A stretch of 42,679 nucleotides of DNA from positions 1 to 42,679 of the forward strand of contig JAAUOZ010000026.1 in assembly GCA_012034655.1 (NCBI GenBank), in the 5' to 3' direction. The notes under the pieces are model-generated. The model saw only the letters and a program-made list of their open reading frames with translations, did not search any database and was not told the DNA's origin. Of this stretch, positions 1,796 to 39,879 are shown piece after piece; positions within the stretch are counted from its first letter, which is position 1; the number at the start of each line of letters is the position of its first letter. Both the position numbers and the translations under genes were made by a program. This DNA comes from Leptolyngbyaceae cyanobacterium CSU_1_3 (GTDB taxonomy: Bacteria; Cyanobacteriota; Cyanobacteriia; Leptolyngbyales; Leptolyngbyaceae).

Positions 1796-1819
1796 GCAAC
1801 CCTGCGTCAGTAAGCGAAC

Positions 1820-5100: not shown

Positions 5101-5762
5101 CCGGAGAAGAAGGCATACAGCGAGCGATCGCGCTACGCCCTGACGCGATCACCCTAGACGTGCTGATGCCCACAATGGACGGCTGGGCGGTGCTGGCAGC
5201 CCTCAAGGCTGATCCTGATCTTGCTGACATTCCGGTGGTGGTGTTGACGATCGTTGACGACAAAAATCTTGGATTTGCCCTCGGTGCATCTGACTACCTG
5301 ACCAAACCGATCGACTACAAACGACTGACCAAAATTCTCAGCAAATACCGCCCAGAAGTTCTAGAACCAGACAAAAATGGACGAGTTCTAATTGTCGAAG
5401 ATGACGACACTACCCGCGATCTATTTCAGCGCACCCTTGCCAAAGAAGGCTGGCTCAGCAGTGTCGCTGACAATGGACGAGTCGCCCTAGAGTGCATTAC
5501 TCACCAAAAACCTGATCTAATTTTGCTAGATCTAATGATGCCAGAAATGAATGGATTCGAGTTTATCAAGCAATTGCAGCAGGTTGCAGCCTGGCGATCG
5601 ATTCCAGTCGTGGTGGTCACGGCGATGAGCCTCACTCCTCTTGATCGCTTACGCCTGAGTGGGTACGTCGAACAAATCCTCCAAAAAGGAGCCTACCGCC
5701 GCGATGAACTGCTCCAAGAAGTCAGAGATTTAGTGCTCACCAACTTCGACCTTGATCCCTAG
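2198..5762 (+). CDS. Hybrid sensor histidine kinase: N-terminal membrane-bounded sensor domain, GAF, PAS, HisKA, HATPase_c and two C-terminal receiver domains. Split by an apparent 1-bp frameshift near 4257..4262.
   Basis: GTG start with GGAGAG 6 nt upstream. There are two TM segments (aa ~13-30 and [19 protein letters not shown]). The H-box is [21 protein letters not shown] 4218..5762 continues the DHp helix in another frame ([21 protein letters not shown]), matching the intact paralog at 7690..7760. G1/G2 boxes are DTGIGI and GGTGLGL. Two REC domains follow (VLVIDDD..D, and LIVEDDD with LDLMMP). A short in-frame SISHS duplication sits in the ATP-lid region. Confidence 0.8.
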
Positions 5763-21006: not shown

Positions 21007-21230
21007 AGTAGAAAGACAAGAGAGAACGCCAGCTAAATCTCCAACTTTTTAACCAACATTTTTACTCAACACCAGCCTTGTTCTTTTGTGGTTATCTAAG
21101 AAAATCTGTATCTAAAATCACAGCAATTTCTAAAACCTTCGTCAAAAGTATATCCTATACACGTAGGAGCCTCACCGTTGGCAACCATGCTACAAGTTCG
21201 ATCGTTATCATTCCGCTCAGAGGGGCAGAC

Positions 21231-22394
21231 ATGAATAATCTGAAGATTGTGATCATTGGAGCGGGCATGGGCGGACTGTGTACAGGGATCGCTCTCCGTC
21301 AGGCTGGGTATCAAGTTGAAATCTTCGATCGCGTCAAAGAACTGCGTCCCGCCGGGGCTGGAATTTCTCTCTGGTCAAATGGCGTAAAAGTGCTAAATCG
21401 CCTAGGTCTGAGCAAAAAAATTGCCTGCATCGGCGGCCAAATGGAGCGGATGCAATACTATAACCATAAAGGCGAATGTTTGACTGACTTTAGCTTGTCT
21501 CCGCTGATCGAAAAAGTTGGGCAACGCCCCTACCCAGTAGCCCGCACCGATCTACAACAAATGCTATTAGAAGTGTTTGGGGCAGACCAGGTACATTTAA
21601 ACTCTAAGTGTGTCGCAGTAGAACAGGAGCACGATCGGGTCACTGCCATCTTTGAAGACGGGCGCAGAGTGGCAGGCGACCTACTGATTGGCGCAGATGG
21701 AACTCACTCAAAACTGCGCGAGTATGTGCTGGGATGCCCCACCGAACGCCGCTATGTTGGCTACGTCAATTGGAATGGACTCGTGCCTGCTAGCGAAGAT
21801 CTAGCCGCAAAAGATAGCTGGGCAATCTATGTTGGCGAACACAAAAGAGCTTCTATGATGCCCGTCGGCAACGATCGCTTCTACTTCTTTTTTGATGTGC
21901 CGCTACCCAAAGGAACCGTGAGCCAGCCAAAACAACACCGCGAAGAATTAATGAGTTTCTTCAAGGGCTGGGCAACACCCGTGCAAGCCCTCATCCAGCG
22001 TCTTGATCCCCTACAAACTAATCGGGTTGAGATTCATGATGTCGAGCCGTTAAACCAATTTGTGCGCGGCCGAGTCGCTTTGCTAGGAGATGCAGCCCAC
22101 AGCACGGCCCCCGATTTGGGGCAAGGGGGATGCCAAGCGATCGAGGATGCAGAAGTCATTACTCGCTATCTGCAAACTACAACCTTGAGCGTAGAAGATG
22201 CCCTAAAGCGATATGAAGCTGAACGCAAGAATCGAGCAAACGATATCGTTCTCAAGGCACGCAAGCGATCAGATATGACACACGGCAAAAATCCAGAAAA
22301 AACGCAGCAGTGGTATGAAGAACTTAAACAAGAGAATGGTAGTAACATCATAAATGCGATCGCGAATACGATTCTTGCAGGGCCAATGCATTAG
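21231..22394 (+). CDS. hpxO: FAD-dependent aromatic-ring monooxygenase, probably an HpxO-type FAD-dependent urate hydroxylase
   Basis: GAGMGG dinucleotide-binding motif ([17 protein letters not shown]), a DG motif ([13 protein letters not shown]) and [15 protein letters not shown]. It is about 387 aa from the ATG at 21231, with GAGGGG upstream. The function is assigned from its position directly upstream of the HIU hydrolase and OHCU decarboxylase genes. Confidence 0.7.
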
Positions 22395-22501
22395 CTCCTC
22401 TATCAGGCAGATTCTCCAAGGATCGTGGATTATTAACTTGGCAACTCAAGATCCGTCAGGCACAATTCAGCAAAACCCAAAACTACTTGCTTAGAAAGTC
22501 T

Positions 22502-22870
22502 ATGGCTGATCACCCCTCTGGTAAACTGACGACTCACGTTCTCGACACGGCTCATGGCTGCCCAGCAGCAAACTTGACGATCGAACTCTGGGCGATCGCC
22601 CCCCAAACCAGAACCCTGCTCAAAACACTGACAACAAATGCGGATGGTCGCACCGACACACCTCTGCTCATGGATGCTGAGTTTAAACTTGGGCGCTACG
22701 AGCTTGTGTTTGCAGTGGGCGAATATTTTATTCAAAAAAATGTTGAGTTGCCAGAGATTCCGTTTCTCGATCGCATTCCGATTCAGTTTGGTATTGCCGA
22801 CCCGACTGGTCACTATCACGTTCCTCTATTGGCTTCTCCGTGGTCTTATAGCACCTATCGAGGCAGTTGA
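22502..22870 (+). CDS. hiuH: 5-hydroxyisourate hydrolase (transthyretin-like)
   Basis: Canonical family signature, including the C-terminal YRGS and [19 protein letters not shown]. About 122 aa from the Met at 22502. Confidence 0.85.
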
Positions 22871-22871
22871 T

Positions 22872-23372
22872 ATGGCTTCTTATACGATCGCCCAACTCAA
22901 TCGCATGAGCCAAGAAGAATTTGTTGAGGCACTGGGAGCTATTTTTGAGGAAACACCTGCGATCGCAGAACAAACCTGGCATTGCAAACCATTCACAGAT
23001 TTTACAGATCTATATCAGAAAATGATTACGATCGTGAATGCAATGACGCAGCCACAACAATTGGCCCTGATTCGATCTCACCCCGACTTGGGAAGTAAGA
23101 CAAAAATGGCAGAAGCCTCTGTACAAGAGCAGTCTGGACTAGGGCTAAATCGGCTCACACCTGATGAATACGCCCACTTTCAAGAACGCAACCAGTCCTA
23201 CAAAGCTCGATTTGGCTTTCCCTTTATTGTGGCTGTCAAAAATCACACGAAGGCCAGTATTTTAGAAGCATTCGATCGACGATTGCAAAGTTCATTCGAG
23301 ACAGAAATCACAGAAGCATTAACAGAAATTTCTGAAATTGCTCGATTTCGCTTAAGAGATCTGATTGTGTAA
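22872..23372 (+). CDS. uraD: OHCU decarboxylase (2-oxo-4-hydroxy-4-carboxy-5-ureidoimidazoline decarboxylase)
   Basis: The ATG overlaps the hiuH stop (TGATATG). Typical motifs are LIRSHPDLG and ARFGFPFIVAVKN. 166 aa. Confidence 0.8.
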   Translation: MASYTIAQLNRMSQEEFVEALGAIFEETPAIAEQTWHCKPFTDFTDLYQKMITIVNAMTQPQQLALIRSHPDLGSKTKMAEASVQEQSGLGLNRLTPDEYAHFQERNQSYKARFGFPFIVAVKNHTKASILEAFDRRLQSSFETEITEALTEISEIARFRLRDLIV

Positions 23373-24167
23373 GTATGAATTGTGCGATCGCCGCACCGTC
23401 AGCATGGCTCTGATGCAACTTTTGCAAGCCTGACCTTTAAGGGGCTTGCAAAAAAATAGAATCCCTCGCTGCATTGTCCGTGAGTGCTGAGGAATCGAAT
23501 ATCATCCGCCTTCTTGATAAAGTTTCTTGCGAGACAACAATGCTACATGGGTCTATTTTGGGGGTTTCACCTTCGATCGCGCTGGAAATTTTCATTGATT
23601 TTCTGCAAGGAAATTAGGGCGCGAGGGTTGAGTGAAGTTGAAACCCGATTCTCTAACAAATGATGCTTGCGCTTGGGCCATCCTGCCCCGGCTGCTCAGT
23701 CCTGAAGGGACTTGCACAGTTAGCCCAAACTTCCAGTTCAGGGTGAGAATGAATCGCAGTGAGCCGCCTGATACAAGATCTAAGTAGACCCGCAAGACAG
23801 TAGGTTTTGACCAGAAATCGATTTAACTTTAACCAACGCAATGTCAATGAAATTTCTTCTCAAAAAGCTTTTCTTCATTACATAATTTATCTCTCAAGTT
23901 TAACTCCCAATGTGAGTTTCAAAGAATGCAGGGAACCATAGGCCTTAGAAACAGCACCTCCAGTGCCAGAAGGGTTGTCTCAGTACCTATGAATTGTATT
24001 AATTTCTTTGATACTCACTCTGAAGAAACTTGATTATTTTTGCAGAAATTGAGTCTTAGAGAAATTGGAATTAGGCAGCAGAAGAAATTCTGTATCAAAG
24101 ATTACATTGTCGTTGCTCTATTTATTTCGAGATTCTAGAAGTCATTCATTTGCTAAGGAGAAAATCC

Positions 24168-27100
24168 GTGCTTAAGCTTACCAATTATGAGATCCAGGAA
24201 AAAATTTATGAAGACTACAAAACGATCGTCTATCGAGGATGCCGGAAGCACGATCGTAAGGCAGTCGTCTTCAAAACCCTCAGAGGAAGTTATCCATCTT
24301 CTGAGGAAATTGCTAGGGTTCGGCATGAGTATGAAATTACCAAAAATTTAGATTTAACAGGAATTGTTAAACCTTGCGGTTTAGAAAAATATAATGGCTT
24401 AGCGATCGTGTTTGAAGACTTTGGCGGGAAATCGCTTAATCACTTTCTTGCTAAAAATCGACCCAATCTGAGTACGTTTCTAAACATCGCAATTCAGCTT
24501 GTGAAAACGCTAGGCAAGCTGCATGAAAGAAACATTATCCATAAAGATATTAAACCGCTCAACATCATTTTCAATTCTAACGATGGCCAAGTTAAAATCA
24601 CTGATTTTGCTAACGCTTCGCTGCTTTTGCAAGAAAACCAGGCGGTGATTCATCCCCATCTACTAGAAGGCACTTTAGCCTATATGTCGCCTGAGCAAAC
24701 AGGTCGCATGAATCGCCCGATCGACTATCGGACAGATTTCTATTCTATGGGAGTTACCCTCTATGAAATGCTGACGGGGCAACTCCCATTTTATGCAGAA
24801 GATGCAATAGAGCTAATCCATTACCATTTGGCCAAGCAGCCAATTGCTCCCCATTATCTTAAGTCAGAAATCCCATCAATTTTGTCTGATATTGTCATGA
24901 AGTTGATGGCTAAAACGGTAGAAGATCGATACCAAAGTGCCTATGGAATTCAATATGACTTAGAGATCTGCCTGGGGCAATTGCAAAAAACTGAGCAGAT
25001 CGAACCTTTTGTTTTAGGTCAAAAAGATATCTCAGCAAAATTTCAAATTCCTCAGTGGTTATATGGGCGAGATCGAGAACTTCAAGTACTAGTTGAAGCC
25101 TACGATCGCATTAGCCGAGGCAGCACCGAAATGATTTTGGTTGAAGGGTATTCTGGAGTAGGAAAGTCAACGCTGGTGCGAGAAATCTACAGGTCTCTCA
25201 GCACGTTGCGACACTCCGAAGGAAGGGTGCAGCAGAGTGGATACTTTGTGAGCGGCAAATTCGATCAATTTAAGCACAATGTTCCCTATGCTGGTTTAAT
25301 TCAGGCATTTCAAGAATTGATTCGGCAGATCTTGACTGAAGGCGAAGCCCAAATCAAAGCCTGGAAAGAAAAAATTCTAGCTGCGATCGGCTCCAATGGG
25401 CAGGTGCTCATTGATGTGATTCCTGAAGTTCAACTGATTATCGGAGCACAACCTGCCATTGCTTGCTTGGCTCCTACAGAAACGCAGAATCGATTTAAGC
25501 TAGTTTTTCAGCAATTTCTGAATGCATTGACTGGCAAAGATCATTCACTTGTTCTATTTCTCGACGACCTGCAATGGGCAGACTCAGCCTCGTTGAATTT
25601 GATTCAACTGGTGATGGCTCCCTCAACTCAGGCATCGCTACTCGTGATAGGTGCTTACCGAGACAACGAAGTGAGTCATTCTCATCCATTAACATTAACG
25701 CTTGACGCAATTCGACAACTGGGAACTGAGATCATCACGCTGAGCTTAGCGCCCCTCAGTCTTGCTGATGTCAACCAGCTACTTGCTGATACGTTGCACC
25801 GCGACCCCTTGGCTTGCCAACCGCTCTCTGAGTTGCTGCTAACTAAAACAAGCGGCAATCCTTTTTTCTTAGCTCAAACGTTGACAACGCTTTATCAAGA
25901 GCGGCATTTATCGTTTGATGCTCAGACAGGTTGTTGGCAGTGGAATCTGGCTCAGATTCAAGAATGGGGATCACCGATAATGTGGTTGAGTTGATGGTCA
26001 GCAAGATTCAGAAATTATCTGAACCAACGCAGAATGTTTTAAAGCTTGCCGCCTGTATTGGAAACTGTTTTGATTTAGGGTTCCTATCGATCGTCAATCA
26101 AAAGTCTCTATCTAAGACCGCAGAAGAGTTGTGGGAGGCTTTGCAAGAAGGTTTAATTTTGCCAACCAGTGAGATTTATATGTTTGTTCAAGATCAGCCA
26201 GTGATGGGTGATGAGTTGCAAACCATAACACAAAATGAATCGCTGAAAATTACCTACAAATTTCTCCACGATCGTGTCCAGCAAGCAGCCTATTCATTGA
26301 TTGCTGATGATCAAAAGCAACCGACCCATCTCCAGATTGGGCGGCTACTGTTGCGCCATACGCCAGTGGCCACCAGAGAAGAAGTCATTTTTGATCTGGT
26401 CAGCCACTTTAATATTGGGGCTGATCTGATCGTGCATCAGTCAGAACGATATGCCGTCGCCGAATTAAATTTGGTGACGGGTCGTAGGGCAAAAGCGGCC
26501 ACTGCCTACGAAGTTGCTGTTCGCTGCTTAAGTGCGGGTCTGAAGTTGTTGCCTGAAGAAAGCTGGCAGTTGAACTATCACTTAACGCTGTCGCTGCATC
26601 TAGAAGCGCTGGAAGCGGAATACTTGAACACTCGGTTTGAGCAAGCAGAGAAATTGGCTGCTATTGTGCTGCACAATGCACAAGAACTGTTGGAAAAAGT
26701 CAAAGTGTATGAGATTAAAATTCAGTTTCATATCTCCCAAAATCAGCAATTAGCCGCGATCGAGACTGCTTTAGAAATTCTCAATCTTCTCGGCGAACCG
26801 TTAGTTCAGGAAGCACCCCAAGACATTGTGGTTGAAGACTTGATTCTTCTTCCTAAAATGACAAACCTGTGCAAGATCGCTGCAATGAAGATTTTAACAT
26901 TGCTCATGCCGCCTGCTTTGTTTGCAAGACCCGCTTTGTTGCCCTCGATCGCCTATGCAATGGTCAATCTCAGCGTTGAGTATGGTAACTCAGCCACCAG
27001 TGCTTATGGTTATGCGTTCTATGGGTTAATTTTGTGCAGCGAAAAAGAGATCGAACGCGGCTATAAATATGGCCAGTTAGCAATGCAAGTGCTAGAGCAA

Positions 27101-29641
27101 TTTGACGCTAAAGAACTGCACAGCAAAATTATCAATGTCTTTAATGTCTTCATTCGCCATTGGAAAGAGCCAGTTCGCCATACGATTAAGCCACTTCAGG
27201 AAGGAATTCAAGTTAGCTTTGAAACGGGAGATATTGAGTATGCGTGCTATAACGCAATTTCCTACTGCACCTATCGCTTTTTTAGCGGAGAAACCCTAGA
27301 AACGGTTCAGCAACAGCAGCATATTTATATCGATTTGTTGCTCAAGCTAAAACAGGAGTATTCAACCTATTTTCTGCAAATTGGGAAGCAACTGGTCTGC
27401 AATCTCATGGGTCAAGCGTATGATAAGTTTCGCTTGATCGGAGAAGATTTTAACGAAGAAGAGGCGATTCCTGCTTTGATGGAGTCTAATAATTTTACGC
27501 TACTTTTCTTTGTTTATCTTGCCAAAACGATTTTGCTATATTTCTTGCAAGACTATCAGCAAGCGATCGTTTATGCCAGACTCGCTGAACAGTATGCAGA
27601 CAGCATGATTGGCTTTATGCACGTACCCGAACTAAATTTCTACACGTCACTCACCTTATTGGCACTCTGCACAACAGCTACCACAGATGAGAAGACGCAA
27701 TATTTAGACCAGGTGCAACGCAATCAAGTGCAAATGCAAGAATGGGCAACTCATGCGCCTGCAAATTATCAACATAAGTTTGATTTAGTCGAAGCCGAAA
27801 GAGCGAGAATTGGTGGACAAATCCTTGAGGCAATGGAATTGTACGATCGAGCAATTTTGGGCGCACAAACAGAGCACTATCTACAAGAAACTGCATTGGC
27901 ATATGAGCGGGCTTCAGAGTTATATGAAGGGTGTGGTCGGGCACAAATCGCTCAGTTTTATCTTGAAGAAGCTTGCCGTGTCTACGATTCTTGGGGGGCT
28001 ACTGCCAAGATTCAAGCCTTAGAGGCAAAGCATTCACAACTCAAGCTAATTGCCCGTAACCTTCCGATGAATGCTGGGGAGGTTCTTCCTACAACAAGTT
28101 CAGTTGTGAGCGATCACCTGGTGAGCCTAGACTTGACCACGATCGTCAAAGCGTCTCAAGCGATCGCAGGTGAGATTGTTTTGAGCAAACTGCTGGATAA
28201 ATTACTTAAAATTGTCATGGAGAATGCAGGTGCTCAGTCTAGTTGTCTAATTTTGCAAAAGAACGGACAACTCGTAGTCGAGGCAACCACTTCAATTGAG
28301 CAAGGCAAAGTTAGTTTACATCCTTCACTACCGATCGAGACTAGCCAGACGTTACCCGTGTCGTTGCTCTACTATGTTGCTAGAACACAAGAAAATCTTG
28401 TTTTAGCCAATGCAATGTGCGAAGAGAGGTTTATTTCAGATCCATACCTGGTTAACCACCGGCCAAAATCTGTTTTATGTGCGCCTATTGTCAATCAAGG
28501 TAAGCTCATTGGTCTGCTGTATTTAGAGAATAATCTCATGATCGGTGCTTTCAACCCAAATCGTCTAGAAGTGCTGAAAATTCTCTCGGCTCAGGCAGCA
28601 ATCTCGATCGAAAATGCTCTCCTCTATGCCAACTTGGCGACAGCAACAGATAGCCTAAAGAAAGCGAATAGTCAATTAGAAGACTATAGCCGTACCTTAC
28701 AGCAGAAAGTTGCCGAACGAACGCTAGAGTTGCAAGAAAAGAATCAAAAACTAAATCAACAAACCACCCAAACTGAATTAGCATTGCACGAGCTAAAGAG
28801 AACTCAGATACAACTCATTCAATCTGAGAAGATGTCAAGCTTGGGGCAGCTAATAGCAGGCATTGCCCACGAGATCAATAACCCCATTAACTTTGTCTAT
28901 GGCAACATTGAATATGTCAATGAGTATATGCAAGAAGTTCTTCATCTACTGCGGCTATATCAGCAGCACTGTTCGCAGCCAATTTTCGCGATACAAGAGA
29001 AACTAGAGGAGATTGACCTCAATTTTCTGCTAACCGATTTCCCAAAAACCCTTGCCTCAATGAAAGTTGGAGCAGAGAGAATTCGGGAGATTGTCAAGAG
29101 CCTACGAAATTTCTCACGTCTAGGTGAGTCAGAGAGCAAAGAGGTCAATATTCACGAAGGCATCAATAGCACTTTGCTGATACTAGAGAATCGCCTGAAA
29201 GAGAAGTTGAACTGTCCTGGTATTCAGGTTGTTAAAGAATATGGTGAACTGCCCATAGTCGATTGTTATGCGGGGCAACTAAACCAAGTGTTTATGAATT
29301 TGATCAGCAATGCGATCGATGCCTTGGGCGAGCGCGATGTCTCAGAAATTCAAGCTCAACCCAGTACGATTTACATTTCTACAGAGGTATTCAACGATCG
29401 TCGTTGGGTCAGAATTTCCATTCGAGATAATGGCAATGGAATATCTGAAGAGTTGCAACATCGTTTGTTTGATCCATTTTTCACCACAAAACCCGTTGGC
29501 TATGGCACAGGGCTAGGGTTATCTATCAGCTACCAGATTGTGGTTGACCAACACAAAGGTCAGTTGAAATGTTTATCAAAACCTGGGCAGGGCGCAGAGT
29601 TTGTGATCGAGATTCCGGTTACACAAGCCTTGTCCACCTAG
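24168..29641 (+). CDS. Giant multidomain signalling protein: Ser/Thr protein kinase, AAA/NTPase, TPR-like helical region, GAF, HisKA and HATPase_c. Apparent 1-bp frameshift near 25962..25966.
   Basis: AAGGAG lies 7 nt before GTG 24168. Kinase motifs are HKDIKPLN, DFA and SPEQ. P-loop is GYSGVGKST. ORF 25931..29641 continues directly (QIQEMGITDNVVEL if one A is added in CAAGAATGGGG). Later features are a GAF (about 28100..28620), the H-box AHEINNPINF and G-boxes DNGNGI and GTGLGL. Confidence 0.75.
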
Positions 29642-29697: not shown

Positions 29698-32600
29698 CTA
29701 CGATCGAGGCGCTTCTAAGAAACCGTTTTGAATAAAGTAGGAGAAGTAAACCTGTAGCAATTCATCGTTGACGGGTGGGCAAACAATGCCTGTATCTGTC
29801 AAAGCGGCACTAGTATTTTGGCAATCTAGATAGGGGTGATATTGGTATAGCTCCGGTAAAGTTAGCTCTTGATACATCTTTTCTACCTGCATTGGCACTA
29901 GTGGATACAAAGCATTCTCTTGAGAGTATCGTGTATGCTGTAGCAGGCGATCTTTCCACTGATCGTAGGGTAGTTTTTCTACAAAGTAACCGTAATCATT
30001 GATCTGTTGAAAGAATTCCAGAAACTTCTGGGGATGAGGATTTACAACGTGGAAGATTTGTCCTAGTGATTGTTCTTGACGAGAGAGGTGAACGATCGCT
30101 TTACTAGCGTAGTCGATCGGCACAAAGTATTCATGCTTGTTCGGTAGGTCAGGGTAGCATCCGAGTTGAATGCAGCCTTTGATCAATCGAGATGCATAAT
30201 CTTTGGTGTTGGTAATTCCCGTTTGGCTATGTCCTAAGATTAGTCCGGGTCGGAAAATGGTCACGGGTATGCCTCTTGAGCGTGCCGTATGCATCAGTTT
30301 TTCTGCCACCCACTTACTTTGTGAGTATCCCAGAAACAGAATATCTTCACTCGGATCAAGGTCATCGTCTTCATACAAAGCAGACATGCGATTGAAGTAG
30401 CCAGTCGCCCCAAATACAGAATCTGTTGAAATATAATGTACTGTCTTGGTTTGGCTCTGACACGCCAGTTTGAGGATTTCTTGAGTACCTAAAACATTGG
30501 CTGCTTTCATCAAAGAATAGGGCTTGACGAAGTTAACCAATGCACCGTTGTGGTAGATCGTATCAATTTGATCAGCCAACAGGTTGAACTGTTCTGGTGA
30601 TACTCCTAACAATGGTTGAGACAGATCTCCAGGAATAGGAACGATACGATCGCGATAACGCTCATCCCACAATGAATATTGTTCTAACGTTTGTTGTAGT
30701 CTAACTGCACCATCACTGGAGCTAGAACAACGAACCAGACAATAAAGGGTTGCCTGAGTCTGCTGAAGTAACTCATGCACCAAGAAGGCTCCCAAGAACC
30801 CAGTGGCTCCCGTGAGGAAGACATTTTGAGGATTGCTAACGGGAACGATCGCCGGCCCACTTGGGTAAATATCTGATGCCAATACTGCATCGCCTTTGAG
30901 GTCAAGCGTTTTCGTTAAAGCAGCAACACTGTCTACGCCATCTCGCTGTAAGGCTTCTAAGGTTTGGGCAAGACCTTCGATCGTCGGATACTCAAACAGC
31001 AAGCGCACAGGTAACTCGACCTGAAACTCTTCTCTGATGTAAGAAATCAGGTGTGCTGCCAGTAATGAATTGCCACCCAAATAGAAGAAATCATCATGAA
31101 TGCCCAAGTCTTTAATACCCAGCACGGCAGACCAGAAGTGAGCAACCTGCTGTTCCATCAGAGTTCGAGGTGCGATGAAGGTTGATTCTAACTCAGGTCG
31201 AGCATCGGGGAGGGGCAAGGCACGATGATCGACTTTGCCGTTGATGGTGAGTGGCAATGTTTCCAACACAACGAACGCTGAAGGAATCATATATTCCGGT
31301 AATTTCTGCTGAAGGAATCGACGCAGATCGGAAGTGGCTAATGTTCCCTTGGAGGTCAGGTATGCTACCAGTCGCTTATCAGTTGGGATATCTTCTCGAA
31401 CAATGACCACACATTCACTCACATTGGAATAATGCTGAATTGCGGACTCCACATCGCCTAGTTCGATCCGAAAACCGCGAATTTTCACCTGATTGTCGAT
31501 GCGTCCCAAATATTCAATATCGCCATTGGCAAGCCGACGCGCCAGATCTCCTGATTTGTAGAGGCGTGTCTTGGGGCAAAAGGGATTTTCGATAAACCGT
31601 TCAGCCGTTAGCTCTGGGCGATTTAGATAGCCTCTTGCTAACCCTGCGCCACCAATATGCATTTCTCCGGGTACACCGATCGGGACAAGTTGCAGATTTT
31701 GATCCAGCAAATAGACCTGAAGATCAGGAATAGGTTGCCCGATCGCGCTGCCTGCATTGAGGTCTGCGATCGTAATCGGTCGATAGGTCACATGGACAGT
31801 CGTTTCGGTGATGCCATACATATTCACTAGCTGAGGGGTTCGATCTCCGTGGCGATCAAACCAAGATTTTAAGCTTTGCAGTTCCAACGCTTCGCCCCCA
31901 AAGATCACAAAGCGCAATGCTAGATCATCAGAAACGCCAGATAGTTCTTCGGTTCGCATCAGTTGTCGAAAGGCAGAAGGCGTTTGGTTCAGTACTGTGA
32001 CTTTTTCGCTGCATAACAACTTGTAGAAGGAATCTGGCGATCGACCCACACAATGCGGCACAATTACCAACCGTCCGCCATGCAACAATGCACCCCACAG
32101 TTCCCACACCGAGAAATCAAAAGCATAAGAGTGGAAGAGTGTCCAGACATCGTGCTTGTTGAATTGGAACCAAGCCTGAGTTGAGCTAAACAGCCGCATC
32201 ACATTGGAGTGATTGATCAGCACTCCTTTGGGTTTGCCTGTTGAGCCAGAGGTGTAGATCACGTAGGCGAGCGTGTCAGCATTGAGAATACGCCCAGGAG
32301 ATGTAGTAGGAAGTGCGGCGATCGTATCCCCATCTGTATCTAAACAAACGGCTTGAGCGGATGTTTTGGGCAACCGTTGCTGCAAATCAGATTGCGTAAC
32401 TACTAAGGCTGCATTCATATCTTCGACAATGCCCGCCAAGCGTTCTGGTGGCGATGCCGGATCGAGGGGAACATATGCACCGCCTGCCTTCAGAATTCCC
32501 AGAATGGCGACAACCAAATTGAGAGAGCGATCGACACATAGCCCTACTAAACTATCCGGTTTGACCCCCAAGTTTTGCAGGTGATGGGCCAACTGATTTG

Positions 32601-34152
32601 CCCGTTGATCTAACTCTCGATAGGTGAGTTGCTGATCTTGACATACGATCGCGATCGCATCGGGAGTTTGTTCTGCCTGCGCTTCAAACTGTTGATGTAA
32701 ACAGGCAGGGAGGGGGGCAGCCTGGAGATCATGCCCGCCTAGCAGTGCTTGTTGTTCTGTGAGGGTGAGCAGTGGCAAATGTGAAATAGACTGATCCGGG
32801 TTGGCAATGATTCCGGTCAGCACAGTGTGAAAGTGCCCCATGAGGCGCTCGATCGTATCTGCATCAAACAAATCGCTATTGTATTCAACACAGCCCATCA
32901 CTCCGTTTGGCACTTCTGCTAATTGCAGCAGCAGATCAAACTTGGCAGTGCCATTGTGGATGGCTTGAAAATCTAACTGCATATCAAGGGACGATTCTAC
33001 CTCGACAGATGCCCCTGGCAAAAACTCAAGCATGACCTGAAAGAAAGGCTGCTGACCAGCTTGGCGCTCTGGGTGCAATCTTTCTACCAGCGTTTGAAAG
33101 GGCACATCTTGATGGGCATAGGCGGCGATCGTCACCTCTCGTTCTCGCTGCAACAACTCCCGAAAACTCGGAGAGCCAGATAGATCAGTTCGCAGGACGA
33201 TCGTATTAACAAAGCAGCCGATTAGGGGTTCAAGTTCCGATCGCGTCCGCCCTGCTGTCACGGTGGCGACAGGAATATCATTTTGGGCTGTGTAGCGATG
33301 CAATAGGGTTTTGAAGGCTGCCATCAAGGTCATAAACAGGGTCACACCTTCTTGGCGAGAGACTGCCTTGAGTTGATCCGTCACGTCTTGTGACAGGCTG
33401 ACACTATGCCGTGCGCCGCGCAAGCTTCTGACTGCTGGATGAGGTCGATCGGTGGGCAGTTGCAGAACGGGGACATGTTCAAGTTGTTGTTTCCAGTACT
33501 CAATTTGAGGTTCGAGCACATCACTTTCTAGCCATTGCCGTTGCCAATCTGCAAAGTCAGCATATTGAATGGTGAGATCGGCCAGGGGTGAAGGTTTGCC
33601 AGCACAAAAGGCTTCATAGAGTGCTGCCAATTCTTTGAGAAAGACATTAAACAGAGAAACCCCGTCATAAATAATGTGGTGCAGGGTGAGGTAGAGGCGG
33701 TGATGGGTGGCATCTAGGTGTACCAGTGTTGCCCGTAGCAAAGGAGCTTGAGCCAGATCAAAGGGGCGCTCACCTTGAGCAGTCGCAAGTCGCAATGCTT
33801 CGCTTTCTCGATCGTGGGGTGGCAACGGTTGAAGGTTGACCACAGAGAGTTTGAAGGAGGACGGTGGGTGAATGATTTGCAGGGGTTCACCGTCGATCGC
33901 TACAAACGTGGTGCGCCAAACGGCATGGCGACGAAGAATTTCGTTGAAGCTGTGCTCTAGTGCTGCGATGTCGAGAGAACCTGTGAGGTGCAATGTTACT
34001 GTGTCGTTGTAATAAGGACTGTTGGGTTCTAGTTGGGCCAGTAGCCACATTTGCTGTTGAGCCAGAGATGTAGGAAAAACCAAAACCTCTTCTTCTATAG
34101 CAGAAGAGATATTTTTAGCAATGTCTAAGGGCTTGGGAAGATGCTGAACCAT
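29698..34152 (-). CDS. Non-ribosomal peptide synthetase, terminal module C-A-T-R (condensation, adenylation, PCP, NAD(P)H-dependent thioester reductase)
   Basis: C domain HHIIYDG. A-domain core motifs LTYRELDQRAN, YTSGSTGKPKG, FDFSVWE, NMYGITE, GELHIGGAGLARGY, YKSGDL and GRIDNQVKIRGFRIE. PCP LGGNSL. The R domain has GATGFLG and the YSQSK (YxxxK) catalytic pair. 1,484 aa with no competing frame. Confidence 0.9.
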   Translation of the reverse strand: MVQHLPKPLDIAKNISSAIEEEVLVFPTSLAQQQMWLLAQLEPNSPYYNDTVTLHLTGSLDIAALEHSFNEILRRHAVWRTTFVAIDGEPLQIIHPPSSFKLSVVNLQPLPPHDRESEALRLATAQGERPFDLAQAPLLRATLVHLDATHHRLYLTLHHIIYDGVSLFNVFLKELAALYEAFCAGKPSPLADLTIQYADFADWQRQWLESDVLEPQIEYWKQQLEHVPVLQLPTDRPHPAVRSLRGARHSVSLSQDVTDQLKAVSRQEGVTLFMTLMAAFKTLLHRYTAQNDIPVATVTAGRTRSELEPLIGCFVNTIVLRTDLSGSPSFRELLQREREVTIAAYAHQDVPFQTLVERLHPERQAGQQPFFQVMLEFLPGASVEVESSLDMQLDFQAIHNGTAKFDLLLQLAEVPNGVMGCVEYNSDLFDADTIERLMGHFHTVLTGIIANPDQSISHLPLLTLTEQQALLGGHDLQAAPLPACLHQQFEAQAEQTPDAIAIVCQDQQLTYRELDQRANQLAHHLQNLGVKPDSLVGLCVDRSLNLVVAILGILKAGGAYVPLDPASPPERLAGIVEDMNAALVVTQSDLQQRLPKTSAQAVCLDTDGDTIAALPTTSPGRILNADTLAYVIYTSGSTGKPKGVLINHSNVMRLFSSTQAWFQFNKHDVWTLFHSYAFDFSVWELWGALLHGGRLVIVPHCVGRSPDSFYKLLCSEKVTVLNQTPSAFRQLMRTEELSGVSDDLALRFVIFGGEALELQSLKSWFDRHGDRTPQLVNMYGITETTVHVTYRPITIADLNAGSAIGQPIPDLQVYLLDQNLQLVPIGVPGEMHIGGAGLARGYLNRPELTAERFIENPFCPKTRLYKSGDLARRLANGDIEYLGRIDNQVKIRGFRIELGDVESAIQHYSNVSECVVIVREDIPTDKRLVAYLTSKGTLATSDLRRFLQQKLPEYMIPSAFVVLETLPLTINGKVDHRALPLPDARPELESTFIAPRTLMEQQVAHFWSAVLGIKDLGIHDDFFYLGGNSLLAAHLISYIREEFQVELPVRLLFEYPTIEGLAQTLEALQRDGVDSVAALTKTLDLKGDAVLASDIYPSGPAIVPVSNPQNVFLTGATGFLGAFLVHELLQQTQATLYCLVRCSSSSDGAVRLQQTLEQYSLWDERYRDRIVPIPGDLSQPLLGVSPEQFNLLADQIDTIYHNGALVNFVKPYSLMKAANVLGTQEILKLACQSQTKTVHYISTDSVFGATGYFNRMSALYEDDDLDPSEDILFLGYSQSKWVAEKLMHTARSRGIPVTIFRPGLILGHSQTGITNTKDYASRLIKGCIQLGCYPDLPNKHEYFVPIDYASKAIVHLSRQEQSLGQIFHVVNPHPQKFLEFFQQINDYGYFVEKLPYDQWKDRLLQHTRYSQENALYPLVPMQVEKMYQELTLPELYQYHPYLDCQNTSAALTDTGIVCPPVNDELLQVYFSYFIQNGFLEAPRS

Positions 34153-34479
34153 TGGATTATTTTCCTATGTGTGAAGAAGAAGTCAAAACGGGTTAGCAGG
34201 CTCGATCGCTCTAACGCCAAAGGGGACAAAGGGGCCATTTGTAGGTAGCCTGAGATCTTGCACCAGTCGCAACACCTATCTTGCAATCCATGCCTGCAAT
34301 TCATGCTGGGCTAATCGTTAAAGTTCGTTGAAACGGGCTACAATCTTCAGCAGATTAAGCTTCTAACCCATTTCATATTTGGGCGTTGCATGTATAGAGG
34401 GATGAAATGGAATGGAATGGATTGTTGAGAAAGATGCAAGATCTCAGTCAAGCTTTAGCCAAACTTTAGGCAGGCTTTT

Positions 34480-37400
34480 CTACAATTCTTCTGCCGTCTT
34501 AACGGACTTATGAATGGGCAGAGTGTTGTATGTTTGCGTGTTCTTTTCAGGAAGTGTTGCGATGTCAGCAGCGTGTTCTTTTCTAGATCTATCCGATTCT
34601 TCTGGCAATGTAAATACCATTGCAGAAGTTTTTTCTGCGAACTCTTTTTTAGATTTACCTGCCAACTTCGCTTGTATTGAAGATAGCGTCATCCGTCGTG
34701 CTTCGCGCACTACAGAAACTAAAGCAGGCATCTGAGGTTGGGTGCTCATCTGGTATTGCTCGATCGCTTCTGCAAATTTAGCCACGGTTGGAGTTGAAAA
34801 CAACGTATGTAGAGGCAATTGCACCTCAAAGACTTCATTGACTCTGGCCATCACTTGAGTTGCTAAGAGTGAGTGTCCTCCTAGCTCTAAAAACGGATCG
34901 TGAATGCCCACCCGATCGACTCCTAGTAGAGCAGACCAAATCGCAGCAATCTTCTCCTGAGCAGGAGTTTGAGGCGCGATATATTCAACCTTGAAGTCCG
35001 ATCGATTCTCTTCTGGAATCGGTAAAGAACGGCGATCTATTTTTCCATTTGGCGTAAGCGGCAATTGCTCTAGAAAGACAAACGCTGAAGGAACCATATA
35101 TTCTGGTAGCTGACGGCTCAAGAACTGACGCAATTCGCTTAACGGGCTGGGTGTAGTCGTGACCAAATAGGCAACTAGGCGCTTGTTGCCAGGGACATCT
35201 TCTCGCGCTATGACCACACAGTCTTGTACTGTGGAATGTTGGCGCAGAGACGATTCGATTTCGCCTAACTCAATTCGGAAGCCTCGCAGTTTGACCTGGT
35301 GATCAATGCGTCCCAAATATTCAATGCTACCATCGGGCAAATAGCGGGCTAAGTCACCTGTTTTATAGAGCCGATCGCTATCCCCAAAAGGATGGTCAAT
35401 AAATCGTTCCGCCGTCAGATCGGGGCGATTGAGATAGCCACGGGCCAAGCCAATACCGCCGATGTGCAATTCTCCAGCGACCCCGATCGGAACGGGATGA
35501 AGTTGAGCATCAAGCAGATGAATTTGCATATTTGCGATCGCACGGCCAATCGGAACAATGCGACGATTGGCCGTGCGCTGACATGCCCAAAATGTCACAT
35601 CAACCGCCGCTTCGGTCGGGCCATAGAGATTGTGCAATTCAGCGTTGAGACGATCGAAGCAGCGTTCTTGCAATTCAAAGGGTAAAGCTTCTCCGCTACA
35701 AATCACTCGTTTGAGGCACTGGCAACCCTCTAGATTGGGTTCTTGCAAAAATGCCTGGAGCATCGACGGGACAAAGTGCAGCGTTGTAATCTGCTGCTCT
35801 GCGATCAACTGAGCAAGATAGGCACTATCTTTATGTCCTTCAGGTCGGGCAACAACCAGCCGCGCCCCCGTCATCAACGTCCAAAAGAACTCCCAGACAG
35901 AGACATCAAACCCAAAGGGCGTTTTTTGCAGAACGCGATCGCAATCCGACAATTGATAAGCATCTTGCATCCACAACAATCGATTGCAGATGCCCTTGTG
36001 GGTATTCATTGCTCCTTTAGGTTTGCCCGTCGAACCGGAGGTATAAATCACATAGGCAAGATGATCAGGGGTCACAGGGCTGAGCGGAGTTTCTACACTA
36101 GATTGAGCAATCGTCTGCCAGTCTGTATCAAGGCAAATCACCTGTGCCTGAGGTGGCAACTGCGGTAATAGCGACGATTGAGTCAGCAACACTGGAACTT
36201 GAGCATCTGCCATCATAAACGCCAACCGCTCTGGTGGGTAGCTCGGATCAAGGGGAACATATGCACCTCCTGCTTTGAGGATTCCGAGAAGCCCAATCAC
36301 CATTTCTAGCGATCGCTCTATACAGATTCCCACCAAACCATCGGGAGTGATTCCTAGGCTTTGTAAGTGGTTGGCTAATTGATTCGCCCGTTGATTTAAT
36401 TCTTGATAGGTTAGTTGCTCTTCGCAAGCTTGCACAGCAATTGCATCCGGTGTTCTCAAGGCTTGAGCTTCAATCAACTGATGCAGGCAAATCTCTGGAT
36501 ATTCCACATGGGTATTGTTCCAGGTGGCAAGTTGCTGTTGTTCTGCTGTGGTGAGTAATGGCAACTCAGTAAGACGGTGTTCTGGGTGAGCTACAATTCC
36601 TTCTAGTAAGGTTTGAAAATGCTCAGCCAGACGAGCGATCGTATCTGCATCAAATAAGTCAGTGCTATATTCAATGCGCCCGATCAGTCCCTCTGGTCGT
36701 TCATCCAGTTCGAGATACAAATCACATTCTGTTGTTCCGGTGTCTACGTCTTGTTGGCTCAACTGCCACCGAGAATCCGTTTCTACCCAGGGGGGAGCCA
36801 GCACAAACAATACCTGAAACCACGATCGCGGCTGCGAAGTCTTCTGGGTTAATCGTAATGCCTCTACTACCTTTTGAAACGGCGTATCTTGATGGGCATA
36901 GGCATCTAACGTCACCGATCGAACACGTCGCAATAGCTCTCGAAAGCTTGGTGCTCCGGATAAATCAGTCCGTATGATCAGCGTGTTGATAAAACATCCG
37001 ATCAAAGGCTCAATGTCCGATCGATTACGCCCTGCCGTCACCGTAGCAACGGGAATATCATCCTGTGCGGTATAGCGATGCAACAGGGTTTTGAAGGCTG
37101 ACATCAACGTGACATACAATGTCACCCCTTCTTGGCGAGACAGTGCTTTGAGTTGCTCTGTCAATTCTTTGGATAAGCTCAAGCAATGCTGAGATCCTTT
37201 GAGACTTGCGATCGCGGGGTAAGGTCGATCGGTCGGCAATTGCAGTGTCGGGAGGCTTGCGAGTTGTTTTGTCCAATAATCGAGTTGAGGTTGCAGTGTC
37301 TCAGACCGCAACTCTTGCTGCTGCCACGCTGCAAAATCAGCATATTGAATGGTGAGATCGGCCAGGGGTGAAGGCCGCCCAGCACAAAACGCATCATAGA

Positions 37401-39879
37401 GTGCTGATAGTTCTTTGAGAAACACACTATAAAGAGATACACCATCATAGATGATGTGATGCAAGGTGAGATAGAGGCGATGGTCTGTTTCGCTGAGTTG
37501 AACGAGCGTAGCTCGCAACAAGGGGGTCTGAGTCAGATCAAAGGGGCGTTGAGCTTGGGCCGTTGCTAGTTGTAGGGCAGTTTGTGCTTGCTGATCTGGA
37601 AGGTATGTTCTTAGATCTACAACGGACAATGGGAAGGGGAAATGCGGCTGAATGACCTGGTGCGGGATGCCTGCGATCGCTACAAATTTTGTGCGCCAAA
37701 TCCCATGACGGCGAATGATTTCATTCAAGCTTTGCTCTAGTGCAGCAACATTGAGCGAACCTGTAAATTGCAGTGTCACCGCGTCGTTGTAGCAAGGCGT
37801 ATCAGGCTCTAGTTGCGCCAGCAGCCACATTTGTTGTTGCGAAAAGGAAAGCGGTAGCGGCTGATCTAGAGCGACGGGCTGAATGGGTTGAGAACCTTTC
37901 CCTCCATCGCTTGTTGCGATCGCGTGGGCAAATTCTGCGATCGTCGAAGCTGCCAACACAGTCTGCAACGGCACTTGCACCTGGAGAACCTCACAGACTC
38001 GCGCAATCACCTGAGTTGCCAGGAGGGAATGTCCTCCCAGTTCCAAGAACGAGTCGTGAATGCCAATGCCTTCAATGCCCAATACGGTTGTCCAAATTGC
38101 GGCAATTTGCTGCTCAAGTTGAGTGCGAGGTGCAACATAGGGAGCCGACACTTCAGGGCGACTCTCATTGGGAATGGGGAGTGCTCTACGATCGATTTTC
38201 CCATTCGGTGTAAGCGGCAATTGTTCCAGCAATACAAATGCTGAAGGAAGCATATATTCTGGCAACGACTGGCTCAAAAATTGACGACATTCTCCCACGG
38301 TTAAGGCGGTTTCTGACGACATGGCCAAATATGCAACTAGCCGCTTATTACCGGGTATGTCTTCGCGAATCATCACCACACATTCACGAATGTCTGGGTG
38401 TTGACGCAAAGCAGATTCGATTTCGCCAAGCTCAATCCGAAAGCCGCGCAGCTTCACTTGATGGTCGAGCCGTCCCAAATACTCGATCGCGCCATTGGGC
38501 AAACACCGCACCAGGTCTCCCGTTTTATACAGACGAGTTCCCAGATGCCAGGGGTTAGAGATAAACCGTTCAGCCGTTAGTTCAGGGCGATTGAGATATT
38601 CTCTCGCTAGCCCAACTCCACCGATATAGAGTTCTCCGGCGACTCCCGCAGCAACAGGCTGAAGGTGAGAATCTAAGACATAACATTCTGTATTAGAAAG
38701 AGGACGGCCGATCGGAAGGGTGGTGGCATCTTCTGGAACCGTTTCAATCAAATGCCAGGTGGCAAAGGTTGTACTTTCGGTTGGCCCATACACATGCAGT
38801 AATCGCGCTGGTGGCTTATGTCGCAGCACTTCGCGCACCCATTTTGGATCAACCGCTTCCCCCCCAAACAATACCTGCCGAAGCGAGTGAAACGCAGACG
38901 GAACTTCACGGGCGACTTGATTGAAGAGAGCAGTCGTCAGAAATAGGGTGGTGATGTTTTGCGCTTGCAGAAAGTTTGCAAATGTTCTAGGAGTGAGGGC
39001 AATGTCTTGGCTAACGATAACCAATCGCGCTCCATTAACCAATGCACCCCAAATCTCAAATGTTGCTGCATCAAAAGAACAATTAGATACTTGAGCGACA
39101 ACATCTGTAGGGTTGAGATCGATGTAGTTTGTATCCATTACTAATCGATGCACAGCTTTATGTTCTACAGCAACCCCTTTGGGCGTGCCTGTAGAACCAG
39201 AGGTATAAATGACATAGATTAAGTCATCTGCATTGCCAGAAGTGCTAGTGTTATTGACTAGATTTTCGGCTGACTGCTGTGTAACAGTTGACCAATCTGT
39301 ATCTAAACACAGCACTTGAGCCTTGTGTTCAGGAAGCTTTGACAACAGCGCCGTCTGAGTCAGCAGCACAGACACTTGAGCATCTGCCACCATAAACGCC
39401 AACCGCTCTGTTGGGTAGCTCGGATCAAGCGGAACATAGGCTCCCCCTGCCTTGAGAATTCCGAGAAGTCCAATCACCATGTCTAGCGATCGCTCTACAC
39501 AGATCCCGACAAATTGATTGGGGGCTACTCCCAGCGATCGTAGGTGACTCGCTAATTGATTGGCGCGTTGATTCAAATGGTGATAGGTCAATTGCTGATC
39601 TGCAAACTCCACCGCGATCGCGTCTGGTGTTTTTTGGGCTTGAGCTTCAAACAACCGATGAATCGCCGTACCGTGAAACTCAGCGATCGGGAATTCACGG
39701 ATCGAAAATTCACTGATCGGGAATTCACTGATCGGGAACTCACCGATCGGGAACTCACCGATCGGGAATTCACGGAGTTGCTTTCTGAGCTTCTCATCTC
39801 TAGCAGCTTCATACTTGAGGTTTGGGTATGCATTCCAAAGACGCATTTCTACAGAGCCTTCAGGGATTCGTTTCTCCAT
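34480..39879 (-). CDS. Non-ribosomal peptide synthetase with two modules, A-T-C-A-T, an N-terminal repeat extension and a ~100-aa C-terminal tail that may be a docking region
   Basis: Two full A domains (YTSGSTGTPKG then YTSGSTGKPKG, with the NTHKGICNRLLW motif in the second), two PCPs (LGGHSL x2), one C domain (HHIIYDG) and no E or TE domain. 1,799 aa. The start codon is uncertain (ATG at 39879 or the internal MRLW). Confidence 0.9.
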   Translation of the reverse strand: MEKRIPEGSVEMRLWNAYPNLKYEAARDEKLRKQLREFPIGEFPIGEFPISEFPISEFSIREFPIAEFHGTAIHRLFEAQAQKTPDAIAVEFADQQLTYHHLNQRANQLASHLRSLGVAPNQFVGICVERSLDMVIGLLGILKAGGAYVPLDPSYPTERLAFMVADAQVSVLLTQTALLSKLPEHKAQVLCLDTDWSTVTQQSAENLVNNTSTSGNADDLIYVIYTSGSTGTPKGVAVEHKAVHRLVMDTNYIDLNPTDVVAQVSNCSFDAATFEIWGALVNGARLVIVSQDIALTPRTFANFLQAQNITTLFLTTALFNQVAREVPSAFHSLRQVLFGGEAVDPKWVREVLRHKPPARLLHVYGPTESTTFATWHLIETVPEDATTLPIGRPLSNTECYVLDSHLQPVAAGVAGELYIGGVGLAREYLNRPELTAERFISNPWHLGTRLYKTGDLVRCLPNGAIEYLGRLDHQVKLRGFRIELGEIESALRQHPDIRECVVMIREDIPGNKRLVAYLAMSSETALTVGECRQFLSQSLPEYMLPSAFVLLEQLPLTPNGKIDRRALPIPNESRPEVSAPYVAPRTQLEQQIAAIWTTVLGIEGIGIHDSFLELGGHSLLATQVIARVCEVLQVQVPLQTVLAASTIAEFAHAIATSDGGKGSQPIQPVALDQPLPLSFSQQQMWLLAQLEPDTPCYNDAVTLQFTGSLNVAALEQSLNEIIRRHGIWRTKFVAIAGIPHQVIQPHFPFPLSVVDLRTYLPDQQAQTALQLATAQAQRPFDLTQTPLLRATLVQLSETDHRLYLTLHHIIYDGVSLYSVFLKELSALYDAFCAGRPSPLADLTIQYADFAAWQQQELRSETLQPQLDYWTKQLASLPTLQLPTDRPYPAIASLKGSQHCLSLSKELTEQLKALSRQEGVTLYVTLMSAFKTLLHRYTAQDDIPVATVTAGRNRSDIEPLIGCFINTLIIRTDLSGAPSFRELLRRVRSVTLDAYAHQDTPFQKVVEALRLTQKTSQPRSWFQVLFVLAPPWVETDSRWQLSQQDVDTGTTECDLYLELDERPEGLIGRIEYSTDLFDADTIARLAEHFQTLLEGIVAHPEHRLTELPLLTTAEQQQLATWNNTHVEYPEICLHQLIEAQALRTPDAIAVQACEEQLTYQELNQRANQLANHLQSLGITPDGLVGICIERSLEMVIGLLGILKAGGAYVPLDPSYPPERLAFMMADAQVPVLLTQSSLLPQLPPQAQVICLDTDWQTIAQSSVETPLSPVTPDHLAYVIYTSGSTGKPKGAMNTHKGICNRLLWMQDAYQLSDCDRVLQKTPFGFDVSVWEFFWTLMTGARLVVARPEGHKDSAYLAQLIAEQQITTLHFVPSMLQAFLQEPNLEGCQCLKRVICSGEALPFELQERCFDRLNAELHNLYGPTEAAVDVTFWACQRTANRRIVPIGRAIANMQIHLLDAQLHPVPIGVAGELHIGGIGLARGYLNRPDLTAERFIDHPFGDSDRLYKTGDLARYLPDGSIEYLGRIDHQVKLRGFRIELGEIESSLRQHSTVQDCVVIAREDVPGNKRLVAYLVTTTPSPLSELRQFLSRQLPEYMVPSAFVFLEQLPLTPNGKIDRRSLPIPEENRSDFKVEYIAPQTPAQEKIAAIWSALLGVDRVGIHDPFLELGGHSLLATQVMARVNEVFEVQLPLHTLFSTPTVAKFAEAIEQYQMSTQPQMPALVSVVREARRMTLSSIQAKLAGKSKKEFAEKTSAMVFTLPEESDRSRKEHAADIATLPEKNTQTYNTLPIHKSVKTAEEL
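39685..39774 (-). repeat. In-frame 15-bp tandem repeat x6 (GATCGGGAATTCAC[G/T]) encoding (EFPIG/EFPIS)n at the NRPS N-terminus
   Basis: Directly visible. Translation on the minus strand gives REFPIGEFPIGEFPISEFPISEFSIREFPIAEF, immediately before the first adenylation domain. Confidence 0.85.

Follow-up and report, generated by a model that had tools for sequence, protein, structure and literature searches.

The 42,679-nucleotide contig JAAUOZ010000026.1 of Leptolyngbyaceae cyanobacterium CSU_1_3 (assembly GCA_012034655.1), the whole of which is hereafter called the window, contains a modular type A (linear) nonribosomal peptide synthetase (NRPS) composed of two genes and three modules. These genes, ORF-A and ORF-B, are co-directional open reading frames (ORFs) on the minus strand, with outer limits in the ORF list at positions 29698-39879. 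The assembly line follows textbook NRPS logic and is an orphan, uncharacterised cluster of a well-known type. It is predicted to produce L-Ile(/Val)-L-Ser-L-Thr with a reduced C-terminus. We consider it probable that the two genes form a self-contained system that makes this reduced Ile-Ser-Thr product by the mechanism proposed below.

The first NRPS subunit, ORF-A (34480..39879; 1799 aa), consists of adenylation (A), carrier (T), and condensation (C) domains in the order A1-T1-C2-A2-T2, followed by a C-terminal tail. In Pfam, it matches AMP-binding twice, PP-binding twice, and Condensation once. The second subunit, ORF-B (29698..34152; 1484 aa), has the order C3-A3-T3-R in Pfam, where the terminal thioester reductase (R) domain was detected as NAD_binding_4. 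The genes are separated by an intergenic spacer of 327 bp (34153..34479). These features and all domains described below are located on the minus strand.

Module 1 includes A1 (38185..39651; pocket codons 39072..38197) and T1 (37915..38112, limits approximate; LGGHSL at 38040..38023), for which the Pfam PP-binding match is in two stretches. It is followed by C2 (36529..37857; PF00668 at residues 675-1117; HHIIYDG at 37461..37441), which has no DxxxxD motif of the heterocyclization (Cy) type, A2 (35023..36477; pocket codons 35907..35041), and T2 (34762..34956; Pfam residues 1642-1706; LGGHSL at 34884..34867). The tail of ORF-A, about 93 aa long (34483..34761), carries the conserved motif QMPALVSVVREARRMTLSS and has no Pfam domain. 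ORF-B encodes C3 (32740..34074; Pfam residues 27-471; HHIIYDG at 33681..33661), A3 (31234..32688; pocket codons 32118..31234), T3 (30958..31149; Pfam residues 1002-1065; LGGNSL at 31080..31063), and R (29716..30825; PF07993, 5.5e-73), with GATGFLG at 30810..30790 and YSQSKW at 30327..30310.

The adenylation regions of both ORFs score above the curated cutoff of the NCBIfam model TIGR01733 and also match PF00501 and PF13193. A motif scan found TSGSTGxPKG, FDxS, NxYGxTE, YK(T/S)GD, GRxDxQVK, and NGK(I/V)D in each of A1, A2, and A3. In the alignment with GrsA, all three A domains have Asp at position 235 and Lys at position 517, the pair typical for alpha-amino acids. The phosphopantetheine-attachment Ser motif LGGxS was found in all three PP-binding carrier domains, twice as LGGHSL and once as LGGNSL. 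No epimerization (E), methyltransferase (MT), or Cy domains were found in ORF-A or ORF-B by Pfam and by a scan for the Cy motif. Among the C-domain references of the LCL and DCL types, TycC6 (2JGP) aligned to C3 with 244 bits, vs. about 120 bits for SrfA-C and TycB. This preference for TycC6, together with the absence of E domains, is in line with LCL-type condensation and a product made of L residues only.

The substrates Ile (with minor Val), Ser, and Thr are predicted for modules 1, 2, and 3, respectively, from the specificity codes. An earlier note on this DNA had proposed an Ile/Val-Ser-Thr assembly line from codes read by hand. For the automated extraction, pocket positions 235, 236, 239, 278, 299, 301, 322, 330, 331, and 517 of GrsA-PheA were used, with the reference checked against PDB 1AMU chain A (residues 1-557, numbering identical). 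Two independent alignments were built: MAFFT L-INS-i for the three A domains with the GrsA reference (four sequences) and a 260-domain MAFFT alignment with 259 A domains drawn from the window, the ortholog, and 119 other proteins of the first homology search. Both gave DAFFLGVTFK for A1, DVWHISLVDK for A2, and DFWNIGMVHK for A3, thus reproducing the hand-read codes. The note had named the gap placement between positions 278 and 299 as its main risk. Insertions of 3, 4, and 7 residues are indeed located there, but both flanks are anchored by the conserved motifs ITxL and (V/L)xxxGE, and the codes are unchanged. A two-sequence BLOSUM62 local alignment gave T at position 278 of A1 through a three-residue shift. 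This variant was rejected and F was kept, since neither multiple alignment has a gap between 239 and 278 and the published code also contains F.

All three codes are identical at ten of ten positions to codes of domains linked to products. The A1 code is that of OciB-A5 and OciC-A7 in the cyanopeptolin synthetases of Planktothrix, where Ile is incorporated with Val congeners (PMC2533009), and is shared by the A domains that incorporate Ile in the suomilide, aeruginosin, and pseudospumigin pathways (PMC13122637). The A2 code is that of RlpB AM1 in variovoracin biosynthesis, a domain with predicted Ser specificity; serine is the first residue of the dipeptide in that product (PMC12964202). The A3 code is that of OciA-A2, for which Thr is found in all congeners (PMC2533009), in agreement with the identity to the canonical Thr code given in the note. 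For A1 and A2, eight of ten matches to related codes had been counted; the arithmetic was right but understated the match.

Whole-domain comparisons were also made. In a ranking against PDB structures, EntF scored 445 bits with A2, 319 bits with A1, and 278 bits with A3, and FscH and Txo1/2 likewise scored higher with A2 than with A1 or A3. With A3, ObiF1 and 5N9W reached 495 and 376 bits, respectively, vs. 233-344 bits for the same two entries with A1 and A2. This ranking agrees with the substrates predicted from the codes. The NTHxGxxNRL motif, which had been noted in A2 as a Ser/Cys-type feature, is present there as NTHKGICNRL. Motifs of this type were found in 15 of 239 A domains with complete codes, and all 15 had Ser-type DVWHxSLxDK codes in this sample, which contains no Cys-type domains. 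Because the code matches are exact, ORF-A begins with a loading A-T module, ORF-B ends with R, and no other domains are present, the order Ile/Val-Ser-Thr is supported as originally proposed, provided that the modules act collinearly.

The codes could nevertheless mislead, with another or a non-proteinogenic substrate being used in one or more modules. At A1 this might be allo-Ile, Leu, or Val; A2 or A3 might take allo-Thr, Dhb precursors, or homoserine. A domain with the code DAFFLGVTFK gives both Ile and Val congeners (PMC2533009), and related Ile-type pockets can accept L-allo-Ile (PMC13122637). Such a deviation is decidedly unlikely in view of the ten-of-ten matches. Moreover, the ortholog from Phormidesmis sp. 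146-33 shares every one of the 30 pocket residues, for which a rough calculation gives a chance expectation of roughly 0.5% at about 16% divergence. A relative with about 60% identity also repeats the Ile and Thr codes exactly and the Ser code with one V-to-I change (both relatives are described below).

Outside their pockets, the three A domains are similar to each other. Using the bounds 77-565 and 1135-1619 of ORF-A and 489-973 of ORF-B, mutual identity is 60-78% at the N- and C-terminal ends and 25-40% across the A4-A5 pocket region. Mosaics of this kind are typically seen where NRPS genes have undergone internal recombination and homogenisation.

Reductive release, the other part of the earlier reading, is supported by an intact R domain. 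Residues 1110-1479 of ORF-B match TIGR01746 with 369.8 bits (cutoff 213.35). The best match among solved structures is MxaA-R (4U7W; E-value 1.8e-100, 340 bits), with GxxGxxG, S/T, and YxxxK aligned; Mtb-R and AusA-R scored 112 bits and 54 bits (E-value 1.7e-13), respectively. GATGFLG, HYISTDS, and YSQSK align with the corresponding residues of 4U7W and are invariant in three family members. Since the NAD(P)H-binding GxxGxxG and the catalytic S/T-Y-K are present, the domain is set apart from the non-redox R* Dieckmann cyclases.

A profile built from the R domains of three family members retrieved hundreds of stand-alone T-R proteins at about 48% identity, one of them annotated as HglB of the heterocyst-glycolipid polyketide synthase (PKS). 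The product of the HglB pathway is a fatty alcohol. MxaA-R forms an alcohol by four-electron reduction. Four-electron reduction by MxaA-R is consistent with a study in which Mtb-R is a four-electron alcohol former and AusA-R is the sole aldehyde-producing R structure (PMC8024701). Because the nearest characterised R relatives form alcohols, threoninol would be somewhat likelier than threoninal as the end group, and Ile-Ser-threoninol is slightly favoured over the aldehyde.

It is possible, though rather unlikely, that the same assembly line operates with an R domain that stops at the aldehyde. The product would then be Ile-Ser-threoninal, which could act as a protease- or proteasome-type warhead or could cyclise, for example by attack of a backbone amide nitrogen (six-membered hemiaminal) or of the Ser hydroxyl (seven-membered hemiacetal). 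The hemiaminal or oxazolidine formation suggested in the earlier note is plausible for such an end. The R domain is intact, and the depth of reduction is not fixed by its sequence. Aldehyde-forming R domains are known in cyanobacteria from the nostocyclopeptide pathway and from the spumigin and aeruginosin pathways, where argininal is formed. Peptide aldehyde inhibitors of cyanobacteria are also mentioned in the literature (PMC6350856). However, the closest characterised R domains, MxaA-R and the HglB-type T-R proteins, are tied to alcohols, with AusA-R far behind in similarity, and on chemical grounds the free N-terminal amine of a tripeptide would be unable to form the favoured six-membered pyrazinone.

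In the searchable literature, no threoninal or threoninol linked to a biosynthetic gene cluster was found, nor any matching compound or relevant cyanobacterial tripeptide aldehyde. This weak negative evidence fits the description of the end group in the note as unusual.

The proposed mechanism is as follows. Module 1, having A and T domains with no C domain, would load L-Ile, or sometimes L-Val, and leave its N-terminal amine free. C2 would join Ile to the Ser loaded by A2, and the dipeptidyl-T2 would be handed from ORF-A to ORF-B, possibly through the conserved tail of ORF-A. C3 would then join the dipeptide to the Thr loaded by A3. Finally, the R domain, which is of the short-chain dehydrogenase/reductase (SDR) type, would free Ile-Ser-Thr from its thioester on T3 with NAD(P)H. 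The end state would be either a C-terminal aldehyde (two-electron reduction) or the amino alcohol Ile-Ser-threoninol (four-electron reduction). All residues should be L, as E domains are absent.

The closest relative of ORF-B is P0001 of Phormidesmis sp. 146-33, with 85% identity. The product of positions 207-5489 on the same Phormidesmis contig (L001) is 84% identical to ORF-A, C-terminal tail included. On this contig, the two NRPS genes are arranged as in the window, and the convergent Ser/Thr-kinase-AAA-GAF-histidine-kinase gene that comes next is also shared. The dN/dS values against the ortholog are 0.11 for ORF-A and 0.09 for ORF-B. The start codon of ORF-B and its Shine-Dalgarno context AGGA(A/G)A..ATG are conserved, and the spacer is 327 bp in the window and 129 bp in Phormidesmis. 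Despite this difference in the spacer, the dN/dS values near 0.1 and the conserved start of ORF-B argue that the genes are real, separate, and under purifying selection. No further copies of the spacer were found in the window or in the fetched loci, and it is thus not a repeated element there.

The tail of ORF-A is also conserved. Its motif, QMPALVSVVREARRMTLSS, with the consensus Q(M/L)P(A/T)L(V/T)S(V/A)V(R/Q)(E/Q)ARRM(T/K)LS, is kept in the window, in Phormidesmis, and in the third locus with only about 60% identity. The tail may be a docking element for ORF-B. An origin of the tail as a remnant of the N-terminus of a C domain, left by gene fission, was dropped because the local alignment scores of 25-26 were meaningless. 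A search with the tail against 1.84 billion representatives returned only an identical fragment (P0241) and one repetitive match with 26% identity, and says nothing on the size of the family.

The region includes many broken genes, and the cluster might be silent or decaying, or its intact frames might be an artefact of assembly polishing. The sensor-kinase genes of the window have at least five apparent frameshifts. Four of these genes are split into overlapping ORFs by apparent single-base frameshifts: 2198-4351/4218-5762, 6278-7243/7141-7776/7737-8324, 24150-25994/25931-29641, and 41050-42573/40481-41053. In addition, a contig of the draft metagenome-assembled genome (MAG) Leptolyngbyaceae cyanobacterium SU_3_3 (L110; JAAUUY010000620.1, GCA_012030915.1) matches window positions 34912-32352 over its positions 504-3059. 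This alignment of 2.56 kb has no mismatches and seven one-base indels, and the NRPS gene calls are shattered in the draft contig, the first 503 bases of which have no match to the window.

Decay or artefact is nonetheless very unlikely as an explanation of the NRPS genes. Their 9.85 kb of coding sequence is open with every core motif intact, and dN/dS values of about 0.1 speak for long-term purifying selection. Six of the seven indels in the draft contig are under-called homopolymers, and at each of the seven sites it is the window that preserves the reading frame homologous to that of Phormidesmis. The kinase gene at 24150-29641 corresponds to an intact protein of 1829 aa in Phormidesmis, and the junction in the window is at about 25964-25970 in a GGGG run. 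Homopolymer runs of at least four bases were found in four of the five junction regions; for 41050-42573/40481-41053, the junction is at about 41074 and the closest such run, at 41032, is about 40 bp away. This suggests that the kinase splits are probably residual indel errors rather than pseudogenes. Runs of at least five identical bases have a density of 2.3 per kb in the NRPS genes vs. 5.3 per kb in the rest of the window.

It is also unlikely that the two genes are merely the core of a larger pathway, in which N-terminal acylation or tailoring is contributed from elsewhere and the product is not the free tripeptide. Module 1 does have an N-terminal extension of about 75 aa, and transporter, phosphopantetheinyl transferase (PPTase), and tailoring genes are absent nearby, so other needed functions would be encoded elsewhere. 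However, Pfam found no starter C domain, fatty acyl-AMP ligase (FAAL), or acyl-carrier element. The extension shows little conservation, and it includes a repeat insertion of 34 aa that the ortholog lacks. Furthermore, the only genes common to the window, Phormidesmis, and the third locus are the two NRPS genes. No tailoring enzymes are thereby implied, and the pattern argues for a self-contained two-gene pathway.

The repeat in the N-terminal extension is a 15-bp tandem repeat of 6.3 in-frame copies (39680..39773, minus strand; 87% matches), found with Tandem Repeats Finder (TRF). It encodes EFPIG, EFPIS, and EFSIR units at approximately residues 36-67 of ORF-A, ahead of A1 and of the first A-domain motif. 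Within the repeat unit is the sequence CGATCG, which forms the core of HIP1, a cyanobacterial palindrome.

Several points weigh against the proposed reading. No PPTase gene was found in the window, and no MbtH-like motif was found in its six-frame scan. Ser domains of the A2 type, such as that of EntF, often need an MbtH partner. The specificity codes are predictions. Similarity of R domains, here the ranking of MxaA-R over Mtb-R over AusA-R, is not a reliable guide to the depth of reduction. Enzymes encoded elsewhere in the genome could conceivably acylate or tailor the product in trans. With several frameshifted kinase genes in the window, remaining errors in the sequence or decay of neighbouring genes are conceivable as well.

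The variovoracin synthetase RlpB shares with the cluster the identical Ser code, LCL-type condensation, and a terminal R domain that gives a C-terminal amino alcohol, leucinol (PMC12964202). RlpB, which is proteobacterial, has two modules in the order C-A(Ser)-T-C-A(Leu)-T-R with a lipid-starter C domain, and its product is a glycolipopeptide. The window cluster, in contrast, is trimodular, with an A-T start (free amine) and Thr as its last residue. Among solved structures, MxaA of myxalamid biosynthesis has the terminal NRPS-module R domain closest to that of the window (4U7W), but it belongs to a PKS-NRPS hybrid that releases a polyene-alaninol, and the upstream assembly line shows no similarity. 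The cyanopeptolin (Oci) and aeruginosin/suomilide synthetases have the identical codes DAFFLGVTFK (Ile/Val) and DFWNIGMVHK (Thr). These synthetases are much larger, contain tailoring domains, mostly use thioesterase (TE) release, and are not orthologous to the cluster.

The AusA-type pyrazinone synthetases (A-T-C-A-T-R; NF047350) resemble the cluster in the starter A-T module, the LCL condensation, and the terminal R domain, which in AusA releases an aldehyde. They have two modules in one protein, whereas the window has three modules on two proteins, and AusA-R is distant. Against NF047350, ORF-A scored 1297 bits and ORF-B 818 bits, far below the cutoff of 2500. A pyrazinone ring would be excluded here, as the product would be a tripeptide aldehyde. 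The scores against the other models were also far below their cutoffs: 813.8 bits vs. 2300 for MxcG (NF038078), to which ORF-B aligns end to end with the same C-A-T-R layout, 1008 and 416 bits vs. 2400 for EntF (NF007605), and a score far below the cutoff for the SolG equivalog model.

A third locus of the same kind was found on metagenomic cyanobacterial contigs (L080/L081). It encodes A-T-C-A-T (P0070, 1739 aa) and C-A-T-R (1507 aa) proteins with about 60% identity to those of the window and with the same tail motif, and the cluster is located at positions 10001-19868 of L080. Its codes are DAFFLGVTFK, DFWNIGMVHK, and DVWHISLIDK, corresponding to Ile-Thr-Ser. Between the window and L080, the A3-A6 cores have identities of 0.76-0.82 when compared by specificity and 0.33-0.34 when compared by module position. 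The cores thus group by specificity, in contrast to the T and C domains, for which position is decisive. Modules 2 and 3 of an otherwise orthologous scaffold have therefore exchanged their Ser and Thr A cores. Replacement of A domains between modules is documented in the group of the cyanopeptolin and aeruginosin/suomilide synthetases (PMC2533009).

The L080 cluster has further peculiarities. Its C2 and C3 share 89% identity, including an unbroken stretch of about 250 identical residues, a sign of recent gene conversion within the cluster. Additionally, the ORF-A tail motif is duplicated there, and fragments of an IS66 transposase are located just upstream of the cluster.

No other members of this group were detected. 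A scan of GTDB representatives gave 78 loci, none with more than 55% identity to ORF-B. Six GTDB loci matched ORF-B over nearly its full length (C-A-T-R); they were rejected as family members, having other codes and architectures. A metagenome scan with the R-domain profile gave no further members, only HglB-like T-R genes and unrelated NRPSs. The family looks rare, with its size being a lower bound: the searches were word- or pattern-seeded, and the first protein search ranked two-module proteins over the true single-module relatives. The L080 locus itself was found only indirectly, via P0070.

We tentatively propose, while regarding it as somewhat doubtful, that the window cluster, the Phormidesmis ortholog, and the Ile-Thr-Ser relative represent a small undescribed family of cyanobacterial two-gene NRPSs. 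Members of this family would produce hydroxy-rich tripeptide alcohols or aldehydes with a free amine, ending in threoninol/threoninal or serinol/serinal, with Ser and Thr permuted by exchange of A cores. For such end groups, no natural-product precedent was found in the searchable literature.

Besides the sensor kinases, the flanks of the NRPS genes in the window include a TIR/TPR gene pair, genes resembling those of purine catabolism, and similar genes. No tailoring enzyme or transporter gene was found within the window. A 165-aa ORF with a TIR domain (19597-20094, minus strand) is located directly upstream of a 370-aa ORF with TPR repeats (18452-19564, minus strand); these two could be a signalling or defence pair. 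Positions 21078-23372 encode an FAD-dependent monooxygenase of 438 aa and, after it, an OHCU decarboxylase with an N-terminal extension of about 87 aa; the two look like a pair for urate or purine catabolism. The HIP1 palindrome (GCGATCGC), a cyanobacterial signature, occurs 37 times in the 42.7-kb window vs. about one expected occurrence. A scan for promoters and terminators gave fewer promoter-like sites than shuffled sequence.

Two features raise the cluster above routine, namely a threoninol or threoninal end with no biosynthetic precedent in the searchable literature and the natural permutation of Ser and Thr modules in its relative; otherwise, it is another orphan cyanobacterial NRPS with reductive release. 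If the prediction is right, these two genes, which together occupy less than 10.2 kb, would offer a minimal and easily cloned system for making a polar peptide of very small size, in which the C-terminal threoninol or threoninal is a rare feature. The window cluster and its Ile-Thr-Ser relative would form a natural pair illustrating re-programming by A-core exchange with C and T domains unchanged, which would be useful to NRPS engineering. If the family is confirmed, it would provide a natural test of the tolerance of C domains for their acceptors, and its products might include a signalling molecule or a new small ligand of a protease or the proteasome.

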